DNA of 64,000 nucleotides from an uncultured Candidatus Saccharibacteria bacterium (GCA_964600695.1 CAZRKK010000002.1:5354-69353); one strand, 5' to 3'; shown: positions 13,427 to 26,995, numbered from the stretch's first letter. The notes: a model not told the origin generated them from the letters alone. A program made the numbers and translations.

Positions 13427-13458
13427 AACTCCCTCTAGTAATTAGGGGGAGTTTTTTT
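13427..13458 (+). terminator. rho-independent terminator after secY
   Basis: aactccctc (13427-13435) pairs with gggggagtt (13445-13453), one G-U pair, followed by a T7 run. Confidence 0.75.
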
Positions 13459-13481
13459 ATTGGTATTTATTAGGAGTTTTG

Positions 13482-13490
13482 TGGTATAAT
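13482..13490 (+). promoter_or_regulatory. extended -10 promoter (TGgTATAAT)
   Basis: Exact TGGTATAAT, ending 9 nt before the ATG at 13500. Confidence 0.55.
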
Positions 13491-13499
13491 ATTCATATT

Positions 13500-13874
13500 A
13501 TGGCAGAAGAAATAAGAAAAATTCCTGGATTCGAATCAGAGCAATCTGCGGAACCAAATAGCAACGAGTCCCCAGAATCAGAACAGACTGAATCTCTAGA
13601 AGCATCGTCTTCGGAAACTCTGAGTGATAATAACTTAGACCAGCAGGATTTGAACGAGACACCAATTGAAGAAGAAGTCGATACATCTAACTTATCGATC
13701 GAATCAGCTTTAGAGCCCAAATCAGGAGTGACTGCTTCTGATTCTATTGCTTCCGAAAGTAACGATGAAGTTCTTTCTGAAAGATTGTTAGCCGACAGTA
13801 AAGAATTAGAGACTGCCACCGAAGCCCGTAAACTTTTAAATGATATCTTAGGCACAACCGAAACTAAAAACTAG
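13500..13874 (+). CDS. acidic S/E/D-rich, probably disordered protein
   Basis: 124 aa from the ATG at 13500. The TTG at 13479 in the ORF track overlaps the promoter. Low-complexity acidic composition, no family recognised. Confidence 0.5.
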   Translation: MAEEIRKIPGFESEQSAEPNSNESPESEQTESLEASSSETLSDNNLDQQDLNETPIEEEVDTSNLSIESALEPKSGVTASDSIASESNDEVLSERLLADSKELETATEARKLLNDILGTTETKN

Positions 13875-13909: not shown

Positions 13910-16468
13910 ATGCCTTTTGGATTTGAACTCAATACTGTAATTTATGCATCACTACTACTAGGAATTTTAGTAGTAGTGTTTTTGCTTGTCGCTGCTTATT
14001 ATATTCACAGGCATTGGTATTACAGTCATGTCATTTTACCCCGCACTAAAGAGTGGGTGTTTTTGGAAATTCAAATGCCAAAAGACAACAGCGAGGATAA
14101 AGAAAAATATCAACGCGATGAAGAAAAAAAATTACTAATTGGTATTGCCGAGCAATTATTCACAACTTTATCAGGAATTAGTCACACTAATTGGTTTTGG
14201 CAACCTAAAGAATATATAAGTTTTGAAATTGCGTGTACAGACAAAAAGATTTCCTTTTATATCAATTGTCCGCGTAAGCTTCAGGAGCTAATAGAAAAAC
14301 AAGTTCAAGCTCAGTACCCTCACGCTTTTATCGAGGAGATTAAAGGCTATAATCCCTTTCCAGAAACTGGGGAGATCGAAGCTACCGAGTTAAGATTGAC
14401 CAAGCCTTATATGTATCCTTTTCGTACTTACAAGAGTATGGAAACAGATCCATTGAATGCGTTAACAAACGCTATGTCAAAACTGAGCGATGGTGATGGG
14501 GCGGTTATTCAAATGATTTTGTATCCAGCAGGGGATCACTGGCAGCATCGTCCGCGGCACATGGCTTTAGAAATTCAGCAAGGTAAAAATCCGAACATTG
14601 TTGCCAAGAGTGCGTTTGGAAGATTTGCGCGCGAGGTAGGAAGCACAGCTAAGGATGGTGTCTTAGGTGGAACTCAGTTAAGTAAAGATCAAATGCAACA
14701 ACGTACCGATTTGTCGGGACGTTATTCGGCCATCAACTTAACTCCGATGCAACAAGACATGGTTAAGCGTTTCGAAGAAAAAGCTAGCCGCCCAGGCTTC
14801 TATACCAACATTCGTATTGTCACAGCATCACCAACTCCTGGAACAGCTAAAGTGAATATGCATAATTTAGTGTCTTCATTTTTGCAGTACAACATGCCGC
14901 CGTTTAATGGTTTTAGAGTTAAGCGTCGTGCTAAGAAGCGTATTATTAAAGATTATATTTTTAGAATTTATCGCCGCTACGGACGTAAGTCTATTTTAAA
15001 TACCGAAGAATTAACTAGTATTTGGCATCTTCCGACTCCATTTTTGGAAACACCTAATATTAAATGGTTGTTATCTAAAAAAGCTCCACCACCTATAAAC
15101 TTGCAACCAGAAGGAATATTACTAGGCCGAAATATATATCGTGGGCAGGAGACACCAATTCATATGGCACGTGATGATCGTCGTCGTCACATGTATATTT
15201 TGGGACGTACTGGTGTGGGTAAAACCGAAATCATGAAATACATGTCCGTTCAAGATATCAAGAACGGTGATGGAATTTGTATTATCGATCCTCATGGTGA
15301 TTTTATTGAAGATGTTTTACCTCACATTCCAAAAGAACGAGCCGAAGATGTAATCTTATTTGACCCATTCGATACCGACAGGCCGATGGGTTTGAACATG
15401 CTCGAAGTCACTAGTGAAGGTCAAAAAGATTTTGCTGTTCAAGAAATGATCTCTATCTTTTATAAATTAGTTACAGATCCTGCGATGCTTGGACCTATGT
15501 TCGAGCACAACATGCGTAATGCCATGCTAACCTTAATGGCTGACGAAGAAAATCCTGGAACTATTGTTGAAGTCCCACGTATATTTACGGACACTGAATT
15601 CCAAAAGTATAAAGTCTCTAAATTAAATGATCCTGTGGTAAGAGCATTTTGGGAGAAAGAAATGGCCAAGACTTCCGATTTTCATAAGTCGGAAATGTTA
15701 GGTTACTTAGTTTCTAAAGTAGGCCGCTTTGTAGAAAATTCCATGATGCGAAATATTGTTGGTCAACCAAAGAGTTCTTTTAACTTCCGTGATATCATGG
15801 ATAACAAAAAAATTCTTTTGGTGAATTTAGCAAAGGGTAAAGTAGGGGAGGTGAACGCAAAATTAATTGGCTTAATTTTAGTGAGTAAAATTCAAATGGC
15901 GGCATTGTCCCGTGCAGATATTCCAGAAAGCGAACGCCAAGATTTCTATTTATATGTTGATGAATTCCAAAACTTTATTACCGATGCTTTTTCTTCTATT
16001 TTGAGCGAAGCCCGTAAGTATCGATTGAATTTGATTATTGGTCATCAGTTCTTAGCTCAGTTGGGGCAAGCAGCTGGTGCGCAAGGTGCAGCTAGTAACG
16101 ATTTACGTGATGCTGTGTTTGGTAATGCTGGTAGTATGGTAACTTTCCGTATTGGTGTAGAAGATAGTGAAGTTATGGCAAAGGAGTTTGCACCAACTTT
16201 TAATGAGTTTGATTTATTAAATGTCGATAGATTTAATGCTTTTGTAAAGTTGATGATTAATGGAACAGCCAGCAAACCATTTAACATGGCCACATACCCC
16301 TTAGCTAAACCAACTGAAGATCAAAAGAAGACAGGGGATGCTATTCGACAGTTATCAAGGTTAAAATTTGGTCGTCCACGGGCCGAAGTTGAAGCAGAAA
16401 TCCTAGAAGCCAGCCAAGTTGCTGATATGATGGCGGCTGGTCCAGGGAGTATCGAGAAAACGGTTTAA
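13910..16468 (+). CDS. membrane-anchored P-loop NTPase, TraG/VirD4 (type IV coupling protein)-like, FtsK-HerA superfamily
   Basis: N-terminal TM helix (VIYASLLLGILVVVFLLVAAYYI). Walker A is LGRTGVGKTE and IIDPHGDF follows it. Walker B is FYLYVDEFQNF, then ARKYRLNLIIGHQFLAQL, resembling the TraG-D_C region. Confidence 0.7.
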   Translation: MPFGFELNTVIYASLLLGILVVVFLLVAAYYIHRHWYYSHVILPRTKEWVFLEIQMPKDNSEDKEKYQRDEEKKLLIGIAEQLFTTLSGISHTNWFWQPKEYISFEIACTDKKISFYINCPRKLQELIEKQVQAQYPHAFIEEIKGYNPFPETGEIEATELRLTKPYMYPFRTYKSMETDPLNALTNAMSKLSDGDGAVIQMILYPAGDHWQHRPRHMALEIQQGKNPNIVAKSAFGRFAREVGSTAKDGVLGGTQLSKDQMQQRTDLSGRYSAINLTPMQQDMVKRFEEKASRPGFYTNIRIVTASPTPGTAKVNMHNLVSSFLQYNMPPFNGFRVKRRAKKRIIKDYIFRIYRRYGRKSILNTEELTSIWHLPTPFLETPNIKWLLSKKAPPPINLQPEGILLGRNIYRGQETPIHMARDDRRRHMYILGRTGVGKTEIMKYMSVQDIKNGDGICIIDPHGDFIEDVLPHIPKERAEDVILFDPFDTDRPMGLNMLEVTSEGQKDFAVQEMISIFYKLVTDPAMLGPMFEHNMRNAMLTLMADEENPGTIVEVPRIFTDTEFQKYKVSKLNDPVVRAFWEKEMAKTSDFHKSEMLGYLVSKVGRFVENSMMRNIVGQPKSSFNFRDIMDNKKILLVNLAKGKVGEVNAKLIGLILVSKIQMAALSRADIPESERQDFYLYVDEFQNFITDAFSSILSEARKYRLNLIIGHQFLAQLGQAAGAQGAASNDLRDAVFGNAGSMVTFRIGVEDSEVMAKEFAPTFNEFDLLNVDRFNAFVKLMINGTASKPFNMATYPLAKPTEDQKKTGDAIRQLSRLKFGRPRAEVEAEILEASQVADMMAAGPGSIEKTV

Positions 16469-16538: not shown

Positions 16539-16593
16539 ATTCGCAGTAGTTTTTTTGTAGTTTAAATCAATTTAGTTGGAGGACTTTGTTAAT

Positions 16594-17064
16594 ATGTATA
16601 AAAACTCGTTGGTCATGAAGATGATCCTAACGTTTGCGGCCTTTAGCGCCGTCGTTGTATTCCTGAACTACGTGGTCGGCATGCCGACTACTAAGCGCAT
16701 GAACTTCGTCTTGATGAGCTATGGTGTTGGTTCGGCCACCATCTTGGCTCTCGCGGCCGTTTTTCCGAGCCGTCTGACATCGGCGCTGTGCCGTCTTGTG
16801 CAGATTGGTTGGGCAGTGGCCATCGTTCTCGGTGGTTTTGCTATGATTATTATCATTGTGGTTGGTTTGGGGCAGTTTAACCTGCCGTTCCTATCGCTAC
16901 AGTGGTATAGCCTGTTCATGGCTTTAGGAATCTTGGGGGCCAGCGTGTTCATGTTTGTCAACGACTCGTATTTTGAAGTCGTTAACGAATATGAAAGCAA
17001 AGCTGGGAAGCCTAAGGTGGTGACACCGCCGGCAAACAGCACTTCGTCGAGCGTTTCGGCATAG
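16594..17064 (+). CDS. 4-TM membrane protein, G+C/CpG-rich coding sequence, no family recognised
   Basis: GGAGGA at 16578-16583, 10 nt before the ATG at 16594, which I prefer over the TTG at 16576. Four hydrophobic helices. Codon usage differs from neighbouring genes. Confidence 0.6.
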   Translation: MYKNSLVMKMILTFAAFSAVVVFLNYVVGMPTTKRMNFVLMSYGVGSATILALAAVFPSRLTSALCRLVQIGWAVAIVLGGFAMIIIIVVGLGQFNLPFLSLQWYSLFMALGILGASVFMFVNDSYFEVVNEYESKAGKPKVVTPPANSTSSSVSA

Positions 17065-17091: not shown

Positions 17092-17128
17092 GGGTAAGAG
17101 CGAAAATATTCGCTTTTACCCTTTTTTT
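17092..17128 (+). terminator. rho-independent terminator
   Basis: 11-bp stem gggtaagagcg (17092-17102) / cgcttttaccc (17111-17121) with one G-U pair, then T7. Confidence 0.8.
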
Positions 17129-17385: not shown

Positions 17386-18102
17386 ATGCAGAAATTCATT
17401 ATTTCGTTCGTTTTTGTCGCAATGTCACTTATGGCTGTTTCGTCGGCCTCGGCCCAGAATCCGGACTTGAACGTTCCGGTGCCTTCGGGAAAGACGCAGA
17501 CCACGAAGAGCCCGGACTTGAACGTTCCGGTGCCTAACAAGTCGGTTCAAAGTTCGGCTAACGTCTATAGGACGTACCGCAACACTACGGTCGTTAAGAA
17601 GTATTCCATGAACGGCGTCGACAAAGACGCTCGTGAAGTGAATGTCGCTCAGGACATTCGTATAAAAAAACTGGAAGACGGCAAGGCTAACTCGTCGGAC
17701 GTCGAAGCAGGATTTAAGTCGGTTGACGATCGTTTCGCGGCTAAGGATCAGGTGGATGCACGACAGGACCGAGAGCTCGGATATACTTTCTGGGCTTTCA
17801 TAATCATCCCGGTAGTCTTTCTGGTTCTGGCGTTGTTGTACTTCATGTTTGGAGGCAACAATAATAACGTTCAGGTTAACGGTGGTGGACATGCACCGGC
17901 ATACGTACCTCAGGCCCAGCCTGCAGTACAGCCGATACCATACTACCAGCCTATTCCTGCACAACCCGTTCCTGCGGCACAACCGGTTCCTGCAGCCAAC
18001 CAACAGCCAAGCGTAAATGTTCCGATCAATATTGCGGTCGAGCCGATTCAGATCGATCTCCGACCGTCGTTGCGTGGAACACCGCCGGCACCCGCTCAGT
18101 AG
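17386..18102 (+). CDS. secreted, TM-anchored protein with PDLNVPVP repeats and a P/Q-rich tail; G+C/CpG-rich coding sequence
   Basis: AAGGAGGG lies 9 nt upstream of the ATG. Signal peptide ends ...AVSSASA|Q. TM helix FWAFIIIPVVFLVLALLYFMF. 11 of 16 Ser codons are TCG. Confidence 0.65.
   Translation: MQKFIISFVFVAMSLMAVSSASAQNPDLNVPVPSGKTQTTKSPDLNVPVPNKSVQSSANVYRTYRNTTVVKKYSMNGVDKDAREVNVAQDIRIKKLEDGKANSSDVEAGFKSVDDRFAAKDQVDARQDRELGYTFWAFIIIPVVFLVLALLYFMFGGNNNNVQVNGGGHAPAYVPQAQPAVQPIPYYQPIPAQPVPAAQPVPAANQQPSVNVPINIAVEPIQIDLRPSLRGTPPAPAQ
17461..17535 (+). repeat. 24-nt exact direct repeat, two copies 51 nt apart
   Basis: ccggacttgaacgttccggtgcct occurs at 17461-17484 and 17512-17535, encoding PDLNVPVP twice. 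Confidence 0.9.
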
Positions 18103-18118: not shown

Positions 18119-18149
18119 AGAGAGCAAGGTAAAACTTGCTCTCTTTTTT
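18119..18149 (+). terminator. rho-independent terminator
   Basis: Perfect 10-bp stem agagagcaag (18119-18128) / cttgctctct (18135-18144), then T6. Confidence 0.85.
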
Positions 18150-18167: not shown

Positions 18168-18176
18168 TGGTATAAT
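18168..18176 (+). promoter_or_regulatory. extended -10 promoter (TGgTATAAT)
   Basis: Exact TGGTATAAT, 37 nt upstream of the ATG at 18213. Confidence 0.55.
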
Positions 18177-18212
18177 TAAAACAACTTTAAATTGTTAATT
18201 CGAAACAAAAAT

Positions 18213-21200
18213 ATGGCTAAAGCCGAAATGGCTCGTCAACCAGATCAAGGTCCAGAACCGGCAATTGACTTGTCGAAAACACTCAAAACCAGTGTAGATG
18301 ATGCTAAAAATAGAGCACGACCACGAGGCCGTGATGTTGATTTTGCTATCCAGCAGAATGATATGCGCGAAGCTAATTTAAGACAGGGTCATCCAGACAT
18401 ATCTGATAAAAAAGAGTTTATTCGACGGGAAAAGGCAAAGAACGAGGCGCGTAGTAAGTCTAAATCTGAAAAGGGACCTAAAAAGAATGAAGTAATTCTT
18501 CAACCTATAGCTCCGGCAGAAAAATTAAAAGCTGTAGTTAACCAAGAAAAAGCCGCGCAGAAACAAAAACCAGAGCAAAAGCCGGAAACACAGCCAGAAC
18601 AAAAGATAGCTCAACAAGAACAAAAAGCAGCCCAAGAAACCAGTAAAGTTGTAGAAAGTGTAGTTCAGGAAAGCACTAAAGAGATGTCCGCAGAAGTGGA
18701 CAAGGCACTTGCCGTACATGCAATTAGTCCAGAACATGCTCAGCAAGCCAAAGCAGTTATAAACAATGAACAGGTAAAGCAAGGAGTTTTTTCTAGAGCT
18801 TTTGGTGCTATAAAAGACAAAGCAGTGGGTGTTAAAGAGTGGTTTGCAGATAGTCCTAGGTTAACTTCACTTTTGGTTGGTGCGGGTACTGGTATGGGTG
18901 TTCGTTACGCTGTTAAGGCTGGGTTTATTGCTGCATTTGGAGCAAACTTACCTTGGTTGGTTGCCGCAGGTGCCACTGCAGGTGGTTTACTAGAAGGTGG
19001 GCGTTCATTTTGGCGTGAATCAAAATCCTATCAATCTAAAGAGATTATGGATCGGTTCAGAAGCGCGGATTATCTAGAAAAGGCAGCCATGCTTTCTAAG
19101 CTTGAGGAAGCATACAAAACCCAAAGATTTGATGCGTCTCCAGAAGGTTACCAAGAAATTGGTACAGCTTTGGCTCATGCTCGAACAGAAATGCAACTTG
19201 AATTAGACAAAAAGGATGGCAAGTTTGCTAATCATTCCGATCGAGATAAAATTCAATATATTTTAAATTTATCACAAGGTATTAAGGGTGAAATTCATAA
19301 AGATAATCGTGGTAAGGAAGCCAGAAAGCTTATTCGTGACATCGAAAAGAGCTTAGAGTACAAGCGTGATTTTAAAGGTGTCTTACAGAACAAAAAGATG
19401 GTAGTTGCCAAGGCAGCTCTTAAAGGTGCAGCTTATGGTGGGCTGGGTTCATTAATCGGTGGGGCAGTATCACACTATTTCTTCGAAAGTGGAACAACTC
19501 AAACTGTCAGCCATGTTGTCGAGAACAGACCTACTGTGGCAGATCATTTTACAAAACATTTAGATCATCGAGGTTTAACCGGTGGTGCTCGTGATTCATT
19601 GCATGATTTGATAGAAGAACAAAGAGGTATTGATCCTAATTTTGCCGAAGGAGTCACTGTAGAGCAACTAGTTTATGCAGAAGACACTCTCGCTAAAGAG
19701 GCTATTAAAAATGGCGTTAAGTCTGGCGTTTCGGAGCATACTTGGACTCATGATGAGTTGATGCGAGCCTTAGAAAAATCTGGAGCGGTTGGAGATAGTT
19801 CTACGCTTACTGAAGCAGGAGAAAGGAATATCGGACGATTGATTTCGCATCGACCTCATTTCTTGTCCGAAGCTACCAAAGAGAAAATGCTTGATTTTAC
19901 ACCTAAAGATTTTAATGTAGTTGTTGAGCAAATTACTTCTCAACCAGAAAATATCGTTCTCTCAAACGAAGATTATGCAGCTATTATTGGTGCACTAACC
20001 CTAGTAGCGGCTTCAGAAGTGGCTAGTGCCGCCGACAGAAGAATCGCTAAGAATCGGCTTGAACAAATGCAAGCGAATCCTCCAACTGGCCAGCCAGGGG
20101 ATGGTGTAGAAACAGCTCCAGCTAATAATGTTGTATGGCCTACAGAAGGTGTTCTTACTGCAGAAGAAGCACGTGTGGATAATAGAAAATTCCCTAATGG
20201 CCCACCACCGTCACCATTTGATGGTAATGTAGAAACTACTCCTACACCTAAACCAGAGGGTAGTCCTTTTGATGACGAAAAAAAGCAAAATGCAGAGTCG
20301 ACTACTAATAAAGCAGGTAAGGTTGAGGAAATTGACGAAGATGTTGAAGCTCAAGTGGATGTACAAGATTTGCCTGGTGTAGAAAAAATCAAAGACTCGG
20401 AAGTTACTCCCGATGCAATTAATCGAAAACTGAAGAGTGCAAAAGTTAATGCAGAAGTAGTACCATGGCCTTTAGAAAAGATTACCAACAAACAGAAAGG
20501 ACAAATTAACAGATTAACTGATTTATATATTTCTTCGGCACGCAAGTTAAACGCCTTAAATATTACAAATAAGGTTGTCTTGAATTTTTATCCAACAGGT
20601 TCAAGAGAGTTAGATTTTACAGATTCTGAATTTACCGCTGGTATTCCTCTTAGTGATAAAACTTATAATAAAAAGAGCTTCGAGAGCTTAGTAGATAGGA
20701 TGATTGAAACTAAGATTTCCGAAAAGTTTGCTGAAATACAAAATAACTATGCATTTCAAACAGAGATGCCTGTCATAGGAAATTCAGAGGATGATCAAGC
20801 TGTTGAACAGTATAAAGCTTTAGATAAATTCCAGCGAAACATGGAAGCAATCGACGCAAAAGAATTAAAACGACTAACTTCTGGACTTAAGAAAGTTACA
20901 ATTGGTGACTATTCATTTATAGGTACTGATGAGGTGGTTCTACCAATGTTTATTAGAGACAACAGGGGTTATCATTATAAATCTTTCAAGCCTAACCAAT
21001 TAAAGGGTATGTTGAAAGAGTATTCCAAAGATCGGTTTGCGTTAAAGCCGATGGATTTAAAAGAGCAGAATGATAAATATCCAAATATTGGAGCAGATAA
21101 AAACTTTTACGATAATATCGAGGAAGCTGAGAGGATAAAAGCAGAAGAATTAGTATACAGTGTTATTGAAAATGAATTCAAAGATGGTTTTCCACCAAAC

Positions 21201-21806
21201 GTAAAGGTATTGTTTTCGGATAGATTCCAGTCAAAGCCAGGTGTCTTATACCTCGACATGTCAAAGTTTGACCAAGCATATATTAGTCGTCAGCTTCACC
21301 AAGGATTGCGTCGTTCTGCGCCAGATCGTTTACAGCGCACTCCTGGTCCTGTTAAAGAGCGTTTAAAGCGGGTTTCTCCTGATTATGGGAATAAAAAGTC
21401 TGACCAAGACAAAGCCATTGAAGCAGCTGTTGATAGAATAATTCGACCCGAAGATTGGGAGAAAAAAGAAACTGGGCCAGCTAATTTAAACCATATTGAA
21501 GAACAGAACGGAGAAGATGAGCTCTATAGTTTACTTGGAGACATAGATAAGAAATATCCAGGGTCTATCTCCGAAAGCATGCAAAAAAAGATCTCTAGTT
21601 ACTTAAAAGACAATAATTTATCAGCAGAGGATTTACTAACCGCCGATAAATTACCTAAAATTACGAGTGTTCTTCCTAAAAAACTTGAGCAGTACATAGC
21701 CGAAGAGTCGTTTGCTAAACTAGAAAAACTGGCAATGGCCGACGAGGATTATACTGACGAAGGCATTAGATTAAAAAATCAGTTAGAAGAATTCATCAAA
21801 AAATAA
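18213..21806 (+). CDS. giant (~1197 aa) multi-TM protein, no family recognised
   Basis: I prefer the ATG at 18213 over the TTG at 18192. The protein has a K/Q/E-rich N-terminal region, G/A-rich hydrophobic segments (e.g. SLLVGAGTGMGV...LPWLVAAGATAGGLL), a P-rich linker and a ~500-aa C-terminal region. Confidence 0.6.
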   Translation: MAKAEMARQPDQGPEPAIDLSKTLKTSVDDAKNRARPRGRDVDFAIQQNDMREANLRQGHPDISDKKEFIRREKAKNEARSKSKSEKGPKKNEVILQPIAPAEKLKAVVNQEKAAQKQKPEQKPETQPEQKIAQQEQKAAQETSKVVESVVQESTKEMSAEVDKALAVHAISPEHAQQAKAVINNEQVKQGVFSRAFGAIKDKAVGVKEWFADSPRLTSLLVGAGTGMGVRYAVKAGFIAAFGANLPWLVAAGATAGGLLEGGRSFWRESKSYQSKEIMDRFRSADYLEKAAMLSKLEEAYKTQRFDASPEGYQEIGTALAHARTEMQLELDKKDGKFANHSDRDKIQYILNLSQGIKGEIHKDNRGKEARKLIRDIEKSLEYKRDFKGVLQNKKMVVAKAALKGAAYGGLGSLIGGAVSHYFFESGTTQTVSHVVENRPTVADHFTKHLDHRGLTGGARDSLHDLIEEQRGIDPNFAEGVTVEQLVYAEDTLAKEAIKNGVKSGVSEHTWTHDELMRALEKSGAVGDSSTLTEAGERNIGRLISHRPHFLSEATKEKMLDFTPKDFNVVVEQITSQPENIVLSNEDYAAIIGALTLVAASEVASAADRRIAKNRLEQMQANPPTGQPGDGVETAPANNVVWPTEGVLTAEEARVDNRKFPNGPPPSPFDGNVETTPTPKPEGSPFDDEKKQNAESTTNKAGKVEEIDEDVEAQVDVQDLPGVEKIKDSEVTPDAINRKLKSAKVNAEVVPWPLEKITNKQKGQINRLTDLYISSARKLNALNITNKVVLNFYPTGSRELDFTDSEFTAGIPLSDKTYNKKSFESLVDRMIETKISEKFAEIQNNYAFQTEMPVIGNSEDDQAVEQYKALDKFQRNMEAIDAKELKRLTSGLKKVTIGDYSFIGTDEVVLPMFIRDNRGYHYKSFKPNQLKGMLKEYSKDRFALKPMDLKEQNDKYPNIGADKNFYDNIEEAERIKAEELVYSVIENEFKDGFPPNVKVLFSDRFQSKPGVLYLDMSKFDQAYISRQLHQGLRRSAPDRLQRTPGPVKERLKRVSPDYGNKKSDQDKAIEAAVDRIIRPEDWEKKETGPANLNHIEEQNGEDELYSLLGDIDKKYPGSISESMQKKISSYLKDNNLSAEDLLTADKLPKITSVLPKKLEQYIAEESFAKLEKLAMADEDYTDEGIRLKNQLEEFIKK

Positions 21807-21809
21807 GCC

Positions 21810-22124
21810 ATGATTAAAGATACAATAGACAAGGTTCTTAAAGAGTTAAACGTCAACAATCTATCTGATGATGATAAGTTTGCGGTGATGGAGCAACTTA
21901 CAGAGCACTTTAACAAAATCATTCTAGACACAGTACTAGCTAATCTTAATGACGAGCAACTCCTCGAGTTTAAGAATATGGTTGATCTGGAGGATTTAGA
22001 TAAAATGGAAGAAGGAATTGCTCTTATTGTAGCCAAAATTCCCGCAATAAACTTTAAAATCGAAGAAGCCATTAATAATGAAATCGCTCATATTAAAGAA
22101 TCCAAAGCGATAATCGATCGATAG
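21810..22124 (+). CDS. small acidic helical protein, hypothetical
   Basis: 104-aa ORF starting 3 nt after the giant gene's stop, so probably co-transcribed. Confidence 0.5.
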   Translation: MIKDTIDKVLKELNVNNLSDDDKFAVMEQLTEHFNKIILDTVLANLNDEQLLEFKNMVDLEDLDKMEEGIALIVAKIPAINFKIEEAINNEIAHIKESKAIIDR

Positions 22125-22148: not shown

Positions 22149-22157
22149 TGGTATAGT
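22149..22157 (+). promoter_or_regulatory. extended -10-like promoter (TGgTATAGT)
   Basis: TGGTATAGT, 78 nt upstream of the ATG at 22235. Confidence 0.4.
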
Positions 22158-22234: not shown

Positions 22235-22882
22235 ATGGATAAATCAGCAAATTTTGCTTTGATCGTGCAAATGATCGAAGCTGCAGAAAAGAATATTCAA
22301 TCGGCTAAGCATTTATTGCGAGAAATGGCCGGTGGAACTGTATCTAAATCTTCCACTAACTTTTTAGAAAAGGCTAGTGGTCTTGATGTTAGTCAAGGTG
22401 GTAAAGTTGTCGAGGGTGTGTTTGATGGACAAAACATGATTGGTCCGGATAGCAAACAGTACCCAGTTCCAGCTAATTATGCATCCAAATCCAAATTAGT
22501 TGAAGGTGATGTGCTTAAATTAACAATCGCAGATGACGGCTCGTTTATTTATAAGCAGATTGGGCCAGTTGAGCGTCGCAAGTTGATTGGTGTGTTAATG
22601 CAGGACGAAAATGGTGATTATAAAGTTATCGCAGATGGCAAAACTTTTCGGGTTTTATTGGCTTCACTTACTTATTTTAAAGCTCAGGGTGGTGACGAAG
22701 TAACTATTGTTGTCCCTAGTGAAGGTGATACTCAATGGGCTGCAGTAGAAAATGTGATCAAGCATTTAGGTGGTGACGGAAGTTCCGACGGGGAATTTAG
22801 TGCATCCGCTGGGCTGCAAGACCAAAAAGATGAAGACATGGAAGCTGAGGGTTTAGCCTCTGGCGAGACAGAAGAATTTTAA
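22235..22882 (+). CDS. hypothetical protein with acidic C-terminal tail
   Basis: 215-aa ORF, no family recognised. Confidence 0.5.
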   Translation: MDKSANFALIVQMIEAAEKNIQSAKHLLREMAGGTVSKSSTNFLEKASGLDVSQGGKVVEGVFDGQNMIGPDSKQYPVPANYASKSKLVEGDVLKLTIADDGSFIYKQIGPVERRKLIGVLMQDENGDYKVIADGKTFRVLLASLTYFKAQGGDEVTIVVPSEGDTQWAAVENVIKHLGGDGSSDGEFSASAGLQDQKDEDMEAEGLASGETEEF

Positions 22883-22909: not shown

Positions 22910-23578
22910 ATGGAAGGTCAGTTGCTTACATTCAATCAAAAACTAACTCAATTGCTGGCAAATAAACCAGTTATTTTGCAAATTCTAAAATTTGCTGCTA
23001 TAGGTGCTCTTAACACAGCTTTAGATTTTATTATTCTCAATTATGTTACTAAAGCTTTTGGTGTGGAATCAGGACTTAATTTAGGCCTTTTAAATGTCAT
23101 TAGTTTTGGAGCAGCAATGATTCAGAGCTACTTATGGAATCGGGCATGGACCTTTGCAGCATCTAATTCTTCTCCTTTATCTAATCTATTTCGGTTGATA
23201 GTTGTTGGTGGTTTGGGGTTTGTTAGCTTTTTATTGGTGGTTATAGGTGGAATTTACAGCGTAGTCGATACCTATTACTTATTCATTTTAATAGTATTTT
23301 TAATTGCAGAAATCTTGATTTGGTATGGTTTTAACCTTAATTTAGGTAGTGATTCCAGTGTTGGTGTCGGTCATCAGTTTGGAATATTCATGATTGTTAG
23401 TTTAATTGGGTTATTGATAAATAGCGGAATTGTAGTAATTGCTTCTATGGCTCTAGCCCCGACATTATCTAATTTAATTAATGTGGATTCTGTAAAGAAT
23501 GTAGCTAAGATCCTGGCAACCATGGTTTCTTTGATCTGGAATTTTGTAGGTTATAAGCTATTTGTGTTCAAGAAATAA
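22910..23578 (+). CDS. GtrA-like membrane protein (polysaccharide synthesis/translocation family)
   Basis: LKFAAIGALNTALDFIILNYV near the N-terminus and WNFVGYKLFVFKK at the C-terminus are typical GtrA-family ends. Contains an extra internal TM segment. Confidence 0.65.
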   Translation: MEGQLLTFNQKLTQLLANKPVILQILKFAAIGALNTALDFIILNYVTKAFGVESGLNLGLLNVISFGAAMIQSYLWNRAWTFAASNSSPLSNLFRLIVVGGLGFVSFLLVVIGGIYSVVDTYYLFILIVFLIAEILIWYGFNLNLGSDSSVGVGHQFGIFMIVSLIGLLINSGIVVIASMALAPTLSNLINVDSVKNVAKILATMVSLIWNFVGYKLFVFKK

Positions 23579-23612: not shown

Positions 23613-23635
23613 ACTGGCGTATAGCCAGTTTTTTT
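23613..23635 (+). terminator. rho-independent terminator
   Basis: actggc (23613-23618) / gccagt (23624-23629), followed by T7. Confidence 0.6.
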
Positions 23636-25360: not shown

Positions 25361-26995
25361 ATGTTTACTAACCCAGAACAAAAAAATAAAAAGATTACCT
25401 TTGCAGTAATAGCGATGGCGGTCGTTGCTTTGGCCGTGGTAACAATATGGCAACCAGGAGAGTTAAGCTTCACGGATAAAACAGATTACAATGCTGAGAC
25501 ACAAAGAGCTCAGGCTGAATTAGCACAATACAAAGCCTTTTTAGCGGAACTTGAACCAAATTACGAAGCTAGTCAACAGTTATTAAAAAAGATTGCTAGT
25601 GCAGATGTAGTTCGTGCAGAAGTTGAGCAGACTTTACAGACAAAGCAGAAAATTGTTATTCCACAAATCGCCAACTCCGAATTAAATATCAGCGATCGTA
25701 AGGATAAAGACTTTGTTTTAAATTATTTGAACACAGTTAGTTCCATGGTGGCTAATTACAAAAATGCAGTTCAACCCGGAACTAATGATTTATTTGTTGA
25801 TAATGCCAACTCTGCTAGTTTGGCTAGGGCTAAGTCGGAAACCGATAGATTTTTAGCAAATTTACGCGGTGTGTCTGTGCCTGCTAGTTTAGTTGAATTA
25901 CACAAAGCTAATATTGTTTCTTTTCAAAAGTACGGACAAATTTTTAATGATGCAGCAAGTTATAGCGAGGGAAGTAACATCGATCCATGGCCAAGTTTCT
26001 ACCAGAGTTACGCTGTGATCGATAATAGATTAGCTGTAGTAAGTAACGAATTAACAAAAGTTGGAAATCAGTTTGCTTTAGCCGAAGAGTTAGAGCGCGC
26101 AACAGGGCCACCATTTATTAAAGTAGCTCAAGCTCAATTAGGTGGTGTGGTAGTAGTTTCTACAGATTTAAAGCGTGATATTTTGGAAGGCATTAAAGAA
26201 GGTTTGGCTAAGTCTTTTGCAAACTTTTCCATGAAGATGCTAGATAAATTAGTCTCTCATATCGAAAAAAGTTTTGCTATTGCTAGTCAACTATATTATT
26301 CCAATGAGCTTGGTAGGTTCTATTCTGTTGAGTATATGAAGAAATTTGTTTCTGATCCACTGGACCAAAGTATTATCCAAAAGTTTTTACCCGAATACTT
26401 TTGTATCGCGCCAAACAAAAAAGATTTGAATAAAATCTTTGTAGCCAAGGCAGCCGAAAATGTGGGTAATGATATAACCATTAATCCGAATGATCCAGAC
26501 TTTGTAGAAAAACTAGCACGGTTGGGAAGTGATGAAAAAAATTATCCACAATGGTGGGAAGGTTACTATCAAGGTTTGGCAGCACAAACAAAGGCAGAGG
26601 CCGAAAGTGCTTCTACTAAAGAAGTTTTGAGCCCTGGAGTAAAAACCGGGAGAGACATAATTACTAACCAAGTTAACAAAACAGTTTCGGCAATTTTCAG
26701 TGTACAAGAAGCGGCAATTTCTGGAGCAATTAACTTAGGAACCAATAACACAGGTAGCCCTGTGAGTCAGTTAGTTTCTGGTGTGGTAGAAGGCTTGGTT
26801 AATAAATTTGTGTTTACCCCAATAAGTGGTGGAGCTTCTAGTGGCGGTGGGATTGGCGTTATCCAAGAAAAAAATGTTTGTCTACAAACTCAAGAGATTA
26901 AGCCTTTGATTCCATTACCTTCATCGGAATACGAAACACCTACAGGAACAACTACAGCTCCAGTTACATCACCACCGTTTGTACCACGTAATTAA
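25361..26995 (+). CDS. membrane-anchored or secreted hypothetical protein
   Basis: 544 aa with N-terminal TM helix (ITFAVIAMAVVALAVVTIW) and a G/S/T/P-rich C-terminus. No family recognised. Confidence 0.55.
   Translation: MFTNPEQKNKKITFAVIAMAVVALAVVTIWQPGELSFTDKTDYNAETQRAQAELAQYKAFLAELEPNYEASQQLLKKIASADVVRAEVEQTLQTKQKIVIPQIANSELNISDRKDKDFVLNYLNTVSSMVANYKNAVQPGTNDLFVDNANSASLARAKSETDRFLANLRGVSVPASLVELHKANIVSFQKYGQIFNDAASYSEGSNIDPWPSFYQSYAVIDNRLAVVSNELTKVGNQFALAEELERATGPPFIKVAQAQLGGVVVVSTDLKRDILEGIKEGLAKSFANFSMKMLDKLVSHIEKSFAIASQLYYSNELGRFYSVEYMKKFVSDPLDQSIIQKFLPEYFCIAPNKKDLNKIFVAKAAENVGNDITINPNDPDFVEKLARLGSDEKNYPQWWEGYYQGLAAQTKAEAESASTKEVLSPGVKTGRDIITNQVNKTVSAIFSVQEAAISGAINLGTNNTGSPVSQLVSGVVEGLVNKFVFTPISGGASSGGGIGVIQEKNVCLQTQEIKPLIPLPSSEYETPTGTTTAPVTSPPFVPRN

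Follow-up and report, generated by a model that had tools for sequence, protein, structure and literature searches.

We analysed a 64,000-nucleotide (nt) stretch of DNA from an uncultured Candidatus Saccharibacteria bacterium (GCA_964600695.1, CAZRKK010000002.1:5354-69353), hereafter the window, and in it a gene for a 1197-amino acid (aa) protein, here called the giant, together with the gene for a 104-aa acidic protein that starts 3 nt past its stop codon, here called the partner. The features of the locus are collected in Table 1. The open reading frame (ORF) of the giant is uninterrupted, as an initial annotation of this DNA had proposed, and its GC content is 39.5%, compared with 38.6% for the window. 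The longest ORF in this frame has a TTG start at 18192, and homologues begin at or just after the position of the ATG at 18213. The stop codon TAA (21804-21806) is followed by gcc and then by the ATG of the 104-aa ORF at 21810, which confirms the 3-nt gap to the next gene that had been described. The promoter sequence claimed for the giant, TGGTATAAT, is present directly 3′ of a terminator-like hairpin at the end of the upstream 238-aa gene. Its -35 region is weak, and because a good -35 is absent the element was omitted by a two-hexamer promoter scan.

Table 1. Features of the giant-partner locus and its surroundings (positions counted from the first letter of the window).
Feature	Position	Strand	Basis and remarks
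ATPase, 852 aa; N-terminal transmembrane segment, VirD4/TraD/TrwB-like P-loop domain	13910-16468	+	Domain searches
162-aa protein, 4-5 transmembrane segments; own promoter-like and terminator-like sites	16576-17064	+	Saccharibacteria synteny
238-aa protein; signal peptide, one transmembrane segment, P/Q-rich tail	17386-18102	+	Saccharibacteria synteny
Terminator-like hairpin and T-run, end of 238-aa gene	18119-18144	+	10-pair stem, 5 G-C pairs, TTTTT tail
Extended -10 promoter-like element TGGTATAAT (TGnTATAAT type)	18168-18176	+	Read from sequence; putative function
Giant gene	18213-21806	+	Stop-free translation, 1197 aa
N-terminal K/Q/E/A-rich region, aa 1-194	18213-18794	+	Composition; poorly conserved; predicted cytoplasmic
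H1, aa 217-262, Gly-zipper-like hydrophobic hairpin/re-entrant segment (putative)	18861-18998	+	Alignment, hydropathy, basic flanks
Basic helical domain A, aa 263-395	18999-19397	+	Model; predicted cytoplasmic; candidate partner docking site
H2, aa 396-425, putative in-to-out transmembrane helix (K..AALKGAAYGGLGSLIGGA)	19398-19487	+	Alignment, hydropathy, flank charge
~125-aa alpha/beta domain, aa 441-565	19533-19907	+	Conserved; predicted extracytoplasmic
H3, aa 585-610, putative out-to-in transmembrane helix, then basic cluster DRRIAKNR	19965-20042	+	Hydropathy, flank charge
Acidic proline-rich linker, aa 613-735	20049-20417	+	Composition; poorly conserved; disordered in model
C-terminal folded alpha/beta region, aa 736-1197	20418-21803	+	Model; shared with closer relatives only; predicted cytoplasmic
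Partner, 104-aa acidic protein, probable divergent DUF5663-family protein	21810-22124	+	Starts 3 nt past the giant's stop; homology
Extended -10-like element TGGTATAGT, between partner and 215-aa gene	22149-22157	+	Read from sequence
215-aa acidic protein	22235-22882	+	Possible co-transcription with giant-partner pair
GtrA-family protein	22910-23578	+	Possible co-transcription with giant-partner pair
Terminator-like site past GtrA gene	23613-23629	+	

A first homologue search returned 12 relatives, 97% to 26% identical to the giant and all 1130-1440 aa long, and the 12 close homologues that were aligned have the whole architecture in common. Measured against an 88%-identical homologue (locus L007), the ratio of nonsynonymous to synonymous substitution rates (dN/dS) is 0.094 overall and 0.01-0.14 in every region (0.07-0.14 in the variable ones), with no region-level diversifying selection detected in this comparison. 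The initial annotation had considered that the ORF could be a fusion of several genes created by a frameshift or an assembly error. Because more than 50 full-length relatives share its architecture and dN/dS is ~0.09, a fusion or frameshift artefact is excluded, and the 1197-aa giant is a real gene under purifying selection. One related sequence, P0013 (275 aa, on a 1478-bp contig), joins part of a close giant homologue, in frame, to the C-terminal domain of a UDP-glucose dehydrogenase (PF03720), an arrangement most probably created by chimeric assembly of short reads.

The domain map of the giant combines composition, alignments and an AlphaFold2 model of the full-length protein built from 53 sequences (mean pLDDT 68; values below are 10-residue block means); an earlier model of the core, from 10 sequences, had a pLDDT of 49.6 and was too poor for use. 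The N-terminus is K/Q/E-rich as previously described (K 13.8%, Q 10%, E 10.5% and A 13.3% over residues 1-210), with pLDDT mostly below 50 for aa 1-130 and helices at aa 129-213 (block means ~50-73). The three G/A-rich hydrophobic segments that had been pointed out are also found, and are referred to as H1, H2 and H3. H1 has conserved R231, K235 and P247, and its invariant positions are G223, G227, K235, A240-A244, P247, G253 and G257. Gly-zipper-like patterns run through H1 and H2 family-wide (G.G.G.A.R.A.R...AGA.AGG..EG.K and K...AAL+GA..GALGGAIGGA), and the helical domain A that separates them is modelled with block pLDDT mostly of 70-89. Kyte-Doolittle (KD) peaks over 19 residues are 1.44 for H1, 1.15 for H2 and 1.75 for H3, borderline for transmembrane helices; the family median of the H1 maximum is 1.49. 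Between H2 and H3, the ~125-aa domain is modelled confidently (pLDDT 87-97) and has the family motif F..G.G.T(H).AR.AIHDYL.N ... EQLVYAEDYL ... PG...I.G..I.EAL.KA ... H.LS..T..M ... NNF (alignment A5), or in short form G.G.T..AR..H..../E.LVYAED.L/H.LS..T..M. As a hydrophobic G/A-rich segment, H3 recurs in 68% of 47 homologues, 20-110 aa past this domain; a K/R cluster usually comes directly after it, and the remainder of the C-terminus holds no further hydrophobic segment in these 47.

Beyond H3, the P-rich linker of the initial annotation was recovered at aa 625-720 (12.5% proline, net charge -13), and pLDDT is below 50 over aa 567-718. The C-terminal region, which had been described by its length and proposed for structure prediction, is modelled as a folded alpha/beta region (pLDDT ~60-95 and mostly above 85 for aa 720-1077, 77-96 for aa 1100-1197) made of three helix/beta-meander/helix modules, among which no sequence repeat was found (z < 1.1). 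Foldseek comparison of the giant with the PDB gave nothing credible, the one match at E 8e-4 having a TM-score of 0.09-0.21, and the folded C-terminal region matched no known family there. A degenerate zincin metalloprotease was considered for the C-terminal modules and rejected, as they have no HExxH and no conserved catalytic motif. Lineage-specific insertions are present in the C-terminal half of several giants: P0010 (L006 10001-14323) has one with four copies of the motif 'F-x-N-W-T-D-S-D-F..LL', while P0007 and P0009 have a duplicate of the first helix/beta-meander module.

Searched exhaustively with a HMMER profile, 1.84 billion cluster representatives yielded 67 clusters at E ≤ 1e-3, 45 of them at E ≤ 1e-10, with lengths mostly of 550-2260 aa. 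The named sources are Candidatus Saccharibacteria, Doudnabacteria, Parcubacteria and 'Patescibacteria group', all of them Patescibacteria; by these searches, the giant is a member of a small, previously undescribed family specific to the Patescibacteria, or candidate phyla radiation. Distant relatives match profile positions ~50-660 only, and we therefore regard the N-terminal half as the family core; beyond position ~800, matches were found only in P0014, P0015, P0017 and P0034. In relatives ~40% identical overall, H1, helical domain A, H2 and the 125-aa domain are 38-72% identical, and H3 belongs to the same conserved core, compared with 12-32% for the N-terminus and 15-33% for the N-terminus, linker and last 137 aa together. 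Searches with the whole giant and with its segments against Pfam, NCBIfam, PHROGs and PDB sequences gave no match, so that its description as a protein with no recognisable domains holds. Likewise, the 41 relatives searched against Pfam contain no known domain except for a single SHOCT and a single GvpG match, in one relative each.

Where the giant resides was judged from the charges on either side of its hydrophobic segments, counted as K + R over 15-aa flanks in 32 homologues. H2 has 4.5 such residues on its N-terminal side versus 0.66 on its C-terminal side, with an excess on the N side in 32/32, while H3 has 1.75 versus 4.2, with an excess on the C side in 87.5%. H1 is basic on both sides (3.7 and 4.5). 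The loop between H2 and H3 has a net charge of ~-13 and is negative in every one of the 32 homologues, and the domain between H1 and H2 has a net charge of ~+6 and is positive in 97% of them. This loop is ~160 aa long in the giant of the window; the family median between both helices is ~236 aa. A signal peptide or N-terminal hydrophobic segment was found in none of 48 giant-family members. Because the flanks obey the positive-inside rule and no hydrophobic segment lies at the N-terminus, the simplest topology is one with the N-terminus in, H2 running out, H3 running in and the C-terminal part in. The N-terminal ~215 aa would then be located in the cytoplasm, H1 would form a hairpin or re-entrant segment in the membrane, both of its ends lying inside, and the basic helical domain would remain inside. 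H2 would cross outward, the acidic ~160-aa loop with its conserved ~125-aa domain would stand outside the membrane, H3 would cross back inward, and the linker and C-terminal ~590 aa (~460 aa of them folded) would be cytoplasmic. Both termini, ~1000 aa, and hence most of the protein, are probably inside the cell on this sequence-based topology. A membrane or envelope protein is the likeliest identity of the giant, and across homologues its flanks follow the pattern of a resident polytopic membrane protein, with borderline hydrophobicity.

That borderline hydrophobicity also leaves room for a cytoplasmic protein, either peripheral or soluble and such as a cytoskeleton-like organiser would be, whose G/A-rich segments would be amphipathic or Gly-zipper elements packed internally or on the inner face of the membrane and whose conserved domain would be inside too. 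Most members are below the usual transmembrane threshold, 23-38% of them exceeding a KD of 1.5-1.6 depending on the segment; moreover, conserved charged residues lie within the segments, the composition is helical and K/E-rich, and the partner is cytoplasmic. However, unless the membrane is crossed it is difficult to account for the asymmetric flank charges and for an H2-H3 loop that is acidic in every homologue compared, and where the ~125-aa domain is found as a stand-alone copy it follows a stalk and an N-terminal anchor of strong hydrophobicity. We consider a peripheral or soluble protein improbable. The stand-alone proteins (P0075-P0080, 190-228 aa, from other Patescibacteria; for example L024 6001-6582 and L025 4924-5610) surfaced in a word-index homologue search, and all have the same build of anchor, low-complexity stalk and then the same ~125-aa domain, which suggests that the domain works outside the membrane. 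They are encoded among housekeeping genes and not beside DUF5663 genes, and we therefore take the partner, a probable DUF5663-family protein, to pair with the rest of the giant and not with this putative ectodomain. A LysM-like ectodomain was tried and failed profile and fold tests. The first four modelled elements are beta-alpha-alpha-beta and G-x-G-x-T-x-x-A-R loosely recalls the G-D-T-L-x-x-I-A of LysM, but the ectodomain is ~3 times larger and has no match to Pfam LysM, and an hhalign comparison with approximate LysM sequences gave a probability of 27% over 28 columns.

The initial annotation had proposed an envelope scaffold or adhesin. Its membrane or envelope part stands, given the hydrophobic segments with family-wide positive-inside flanks. 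The adhesin part does not, as there is no signal peptide and the exposed portion would be a conserved ~160-aa loop. In that reading most of the giant, notably its variable C-terminal half, would be displayed on the surface and bind the host. Episymbionts need adhesins, the protein is large, and the homologue comparison that had been suggested for the C-terminal domain did reveal variability between strains, residues 1061-1197 being 69-72% identical where the remainder is ~80-100%. In adhesins, the exposed parts are usually the most variable. Here, conversely, fast divergence is seen in the N- and C-terminal regions, for which a cytoplasmic location is predicted, the basic cluster past H3 places the C-terminus inside, and the predicted exposed loop holds one of the best-conserved stretches of the protein; the low dN/dS even in the variable regions argues in the same direction. 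No cell-wall anchor or adhesin-type beta-repeat domain is present, Pfam adhesin, repeat or anchor domains are absent from the giant and the 41 relatives, and the model is helical or alpha/beta. Because most of the giant is probably inside the cell, an adhesin is very unlikely. The variable 3′ end has a feature of its own: against L007, the last 137 codons (aa 1061-1197, window 21393-21803) have a dS of 2.06 and a dN of 0.196, compared with a dS mostly of ~0.3-0.6 in the rest of the gene and ~1.05 in the short H2 and H3 segments. The jump in dS suggests that the 3′ end is recombined or mosaic between strains.

The 104-aa acidic neighbour named in the initial annotation is a true partner, adjoining the giant in every locus with enough flanking sequence (15 Saccharibacteria-type loci and 7 others). 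It lies directly downstream of the giant in Saccharibacteria-type loci and directly upstream in L012/L023 and L014. An independent, partner-first search of metagenome contigs yielded 8 loci, and a giant-family gene was adjacent in 6/6 of those with enough flank, the remaining 2/8 being on contigs shorter than 1.5 kb. The giant and its partner thus form a two-gene module, and the pairing is strict. The partner is homologous across all loci examined (alignment A7, homologues 25-65% identical) and is better conserved than the giant: beside P0026, where the giant is ~19% identical, it is 43% identical. The window's copy has a net charge of -11, and all of ten copies are at -10 to -14 and contain neither a transmembrane segment nor a signal peptide. 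Weak DUF5663 matches had been recorded beforehand on partner orthologues, and five of ten homologues match Pfam DUF5663 (PF18908), with a best E-value of 1.8e-6. The copy in the window has no PF18908 match at E up to 10 and is provisionally assigned to the family through homology to copies that match. It resembles DUF5663 proteins in being ~100-145 aa long (as a family range), all-helical and acidic, and differs in lying below the detection of the Pfam model. Searches with the 104-aa protein against Pfam, NCBIfam, PHROGs and PDB sequences returned nothing, and comparison with the PDB gave no meaningful match. A WXG100 or type VII small substrate was rejected as an identity for the partner: the window copy has no W-x-G, alignment A7 has no conserved W, and there is no Pfam WXG100 match.

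A conserved gene order surrounds the pair in many Saccharibacteria loci (ATPase, 162-aa multi-transmembrane protein, 238-aa protein with signal peptide and transmembrane segment, giant, partner, 215-aa protein, GtrA and DnaX), and is kept even where the giants are only 19-27% identical. The ATPase orthologues carry an annotated DUF8128 domain. One possible reading of this order is that the giant is a subunit of a machine built around the DUF8128/VirD4-like ATPase with the 162-aa and 238-aa proteins, an exapted translocation apparatus of type IV coupling protein (T4CP) or FtsK-like type. VirD4-like homologues are very common in Patescibacteria, mostly far from virB4, and such orphan T4CP homologues have been suggested to be exapted (PMC12102498). 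However, the same block also keeps unrelated housekeeping genes (DnaX, RuvX and TIM) in order, and synteny with the ATPase is therefore weak evidence. Strong terminator-like hairpins with T-runs (13427-13453, 17092-17121, 18119-18144 and 23613-23629, + strand), of a kind ~2.5 times commoner here than in shuffled sequence, split the region into units of SecY, a 131-aa ORF with the ATPase, the 162-aa gene, the 238-aa gene, and the giant through GtrA. The ATPase and the giant are thereby separated by two genes and two terminator-like sites, and the genes have separate promoter-like signals as well. Within the last unit, the 215-aa and GtrA genes may be co-transcribed with the pair or may start from TGGTATAGT.

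Outside the Saccharibacteria the ATPase is absent within 8-10 kb of the pair in six loci (L012, L014, L019, L020, L022 and L023), where the neighbours are RecG, ArgRS, Hsp20, PrsW and an M15 peptidase. In Candidatus Southlakia epibionticum, neither of the T4CP-like genes SEML1_0142 (essential) and SEML1_0293 (non-essential) lies near the DUF5663 locus SEML1_0161-0163 (PMC10633639). The link to the neighbouring ATPase made in the initial annotation is therefore poorly supported, being confined to a Saccharibacteria block that retains housekeeping genes too, and a subunit of an ATPase machine is a quite unlikely role for the giant. A type IV secretion system (T4SS) component was rejected in the same way. 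The TrwB/TraD-like P-loop domain of the 852-aa neighbour recalls T4CP systems (VirD4/TraD/TrwB) and the MPF-FATA-like T4SS of Patescibacteria, but the giant matches no VirB or Prg component in Pfam or NCBIfam, the scanned ORFs of the window include neither VirB4 nor any other T4SS gene, and ATPase adjacency is limited to one lineage, that of the Saccharibacteria-type loci.

Several observations concern the neighbours themselves. Over nearly all of its length, the 852-aa ATPase matches phrog_5156 (E 2.8e-94), a functionally uncharacterised phage protein family. SEML1_0142 has a build like that of the window ATPase, with a small ORF ahead of it, and is essential by transposon sequencing (Tn-seq), making it a candidate counterpart by architecture only. 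Directly upstream of the ATPase, the 131-aa ORF (13479-13874, + strand) is S/E-rich with a net charge of -24 and an uncertain TTG start; it has a phmmer homologue in the locus of one other genome only (L006/L009), and unannotated ORFs of similar size are found at its position in other loci. The 215-aa protein and a 544-aa N-terminally anchored protein (25361-26995, + strand) have no Pfam family and are far better kept than the giant across Saccharibacteria loci, with phmmer E-values mostly of 1e-90 to 1e-287.

The tight pairing with a small acidic protein raises a further explanation, namely that the giant is an exported effector or translocator, perhaps exported by the VirD4-like ATPase, whose Gly-zippers insert in a host membrane, and that the partner keeps it soluble before export, as type III, IV and VI secretion chaperones do for their substrates. 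The partner is small, acidic, helical and encoded tightly beside its putative client, which has no signal peptide and is only moderately hydrophobic in its segments, and a T4CP-like ATPase is located upstream in Saccharibacteria loci. In addition, the DUF5663 protein SEML1_0163 of Ca. S. epibionticum has structure-based matches that include the trigger-factor C-terminal domain and the LTXXQ (Spy/CpxP-like) family, which are chaperone folds (PMC10633639 Table S2). A small acidic cytoplasmic protein encoded beside a substrate is not specific to secretion chaperones, however, and positive-inside flanks are the signature of insertion in the producer's own membrane. Furthermore, the pair is found among housekeeping genes without such an ATPase in the six non-Saccharibacteria loci, the scanned ORFs of the window lack a T4SS, and the hydrophobic core is the slowest-evolving part of the giant. 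We consider export with a dedicated chaperone unlikely.

Our preferred, though tentative, explanation, which we would place slightly short of an even chance, is that the giant is a Patescibacteria-specific polytopic membrane scaffold or transducer that works with its cytoplasmic DUF5663 partner. The conserved ectodomain would contact a conserved envelope component, and the membrane core would couple this contact to a large, lineage-variable cytoplasmic platform. The partner, with its net charge of -10 to -14, would bind the platform, most plausibly at the basic helical domain of aa 263-395. The family, its architecture, the flank charges, the strict pairing and the purifying selection are observed, whereas membrane insertion, orientation, partner binding and the role of the module are inferred. 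Several points weigh against this scaffold or transducer. The hydrophobic segments are weak (KD 1.1-1.75), Gly/Ala-rich and interrupted by conserved charged residues (R231, K235 and E602), and AlphaFold confidence is low for all three. The sequences behind the flank-charge statistics are related, so that p-values from them overstate how independent they are. For the stand-alone domain proteins, too, the orientation is a prediction, as is docking of the partner on the giant, and no fold or sequence match indicates a role for the ectodomain or the C-terminal region.

A cultivated relative offers a possible route to function. In Ca. S. epibionticum ML1, two DUF5663 genes, SEML1_0162 and SEML1_0163, are directly preceded by SEML1_0161, whose 767-aa hypothetical product contains no Pfam domain (PMC10633639, Tables S1/S2). 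By Tn-seq, SEML1_0161 and SEML1_0162 were scored GD/ES/ES and thus essential, and SEML1_0163 was scored NE/GD/GD; both DUF5663 genes were flagged as belonging to a Patescibacteria-enriched core family, and among the essential genes of that study such Patescibacteria-enriched families were strongly over-represented (PMC10633639). SEML1_0161 may be a member of the giant family, a candidacy that comes from gene context only. It is conceivable, if doubtful, that the giant and its DUF5663 partner are an essential, Patescibacteria-specific trans-membrane organiser or transducer linking the envelope or host-contact face to the cytoplasm, with SEML1_0161/SEML1_0162 as the counterpart. If the S. epibionticum pair is indeed the same module, its function becomes open to genetics in a cultivated strain, and the module would bear on how minimal cells organise their envelope or sense hosts.

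Patescibacteria account for much of the diversity of bacteria, about half of their genes have no assigned function, and they lack many canonical envelope and division factors. Uncharacterised families are common among them, and the novelty of one more family will by itself not surprise a specialist. What is new here is a giant without a match by sequence, profile or fold, and no new mechanism is demonstrated. The literature searched neither describes the giant-partner pair nor names DUF5663. For an anonymous giant there is now a family profile together with a domain map whose topology can be tested, a ~125-aa putative ectodomain and an obligate small partner.

Two groups of known systems invite comparison with the module as a whole. 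Substrate-chaperone pairs (type III secretion translocators with class II chaperones, type VI secretion transmembrane-domain effectors with Eag chaperones, and VirE2 with VirE1) are similar in that a small acidic cytoplasmic protein accompanies a large, moderately hydrophobic one without a signal peptide. They differ in that the partner matches no chaperone family by sequence or fold, no secretion apparatus is consistently near, and the giant's flanks fit a resident membrane protein. RodZ, EzrA and RsgI-type anti-sigma factors are bitopic or polytopic organisers of the bacterial envelope in which a large cytoplasmic part is combined with a small ectodomain. The giant is not homologous to them, and no helix-turn-helix, anti-sigma or spectrin-like domain was detected in it; by analogy, however, they share the plan proposed for the giant, that of a protein mostly in the cytoplasm, anchored in the membrane, with a small conserved domain outside it and a soluble cytoplasmic partner.

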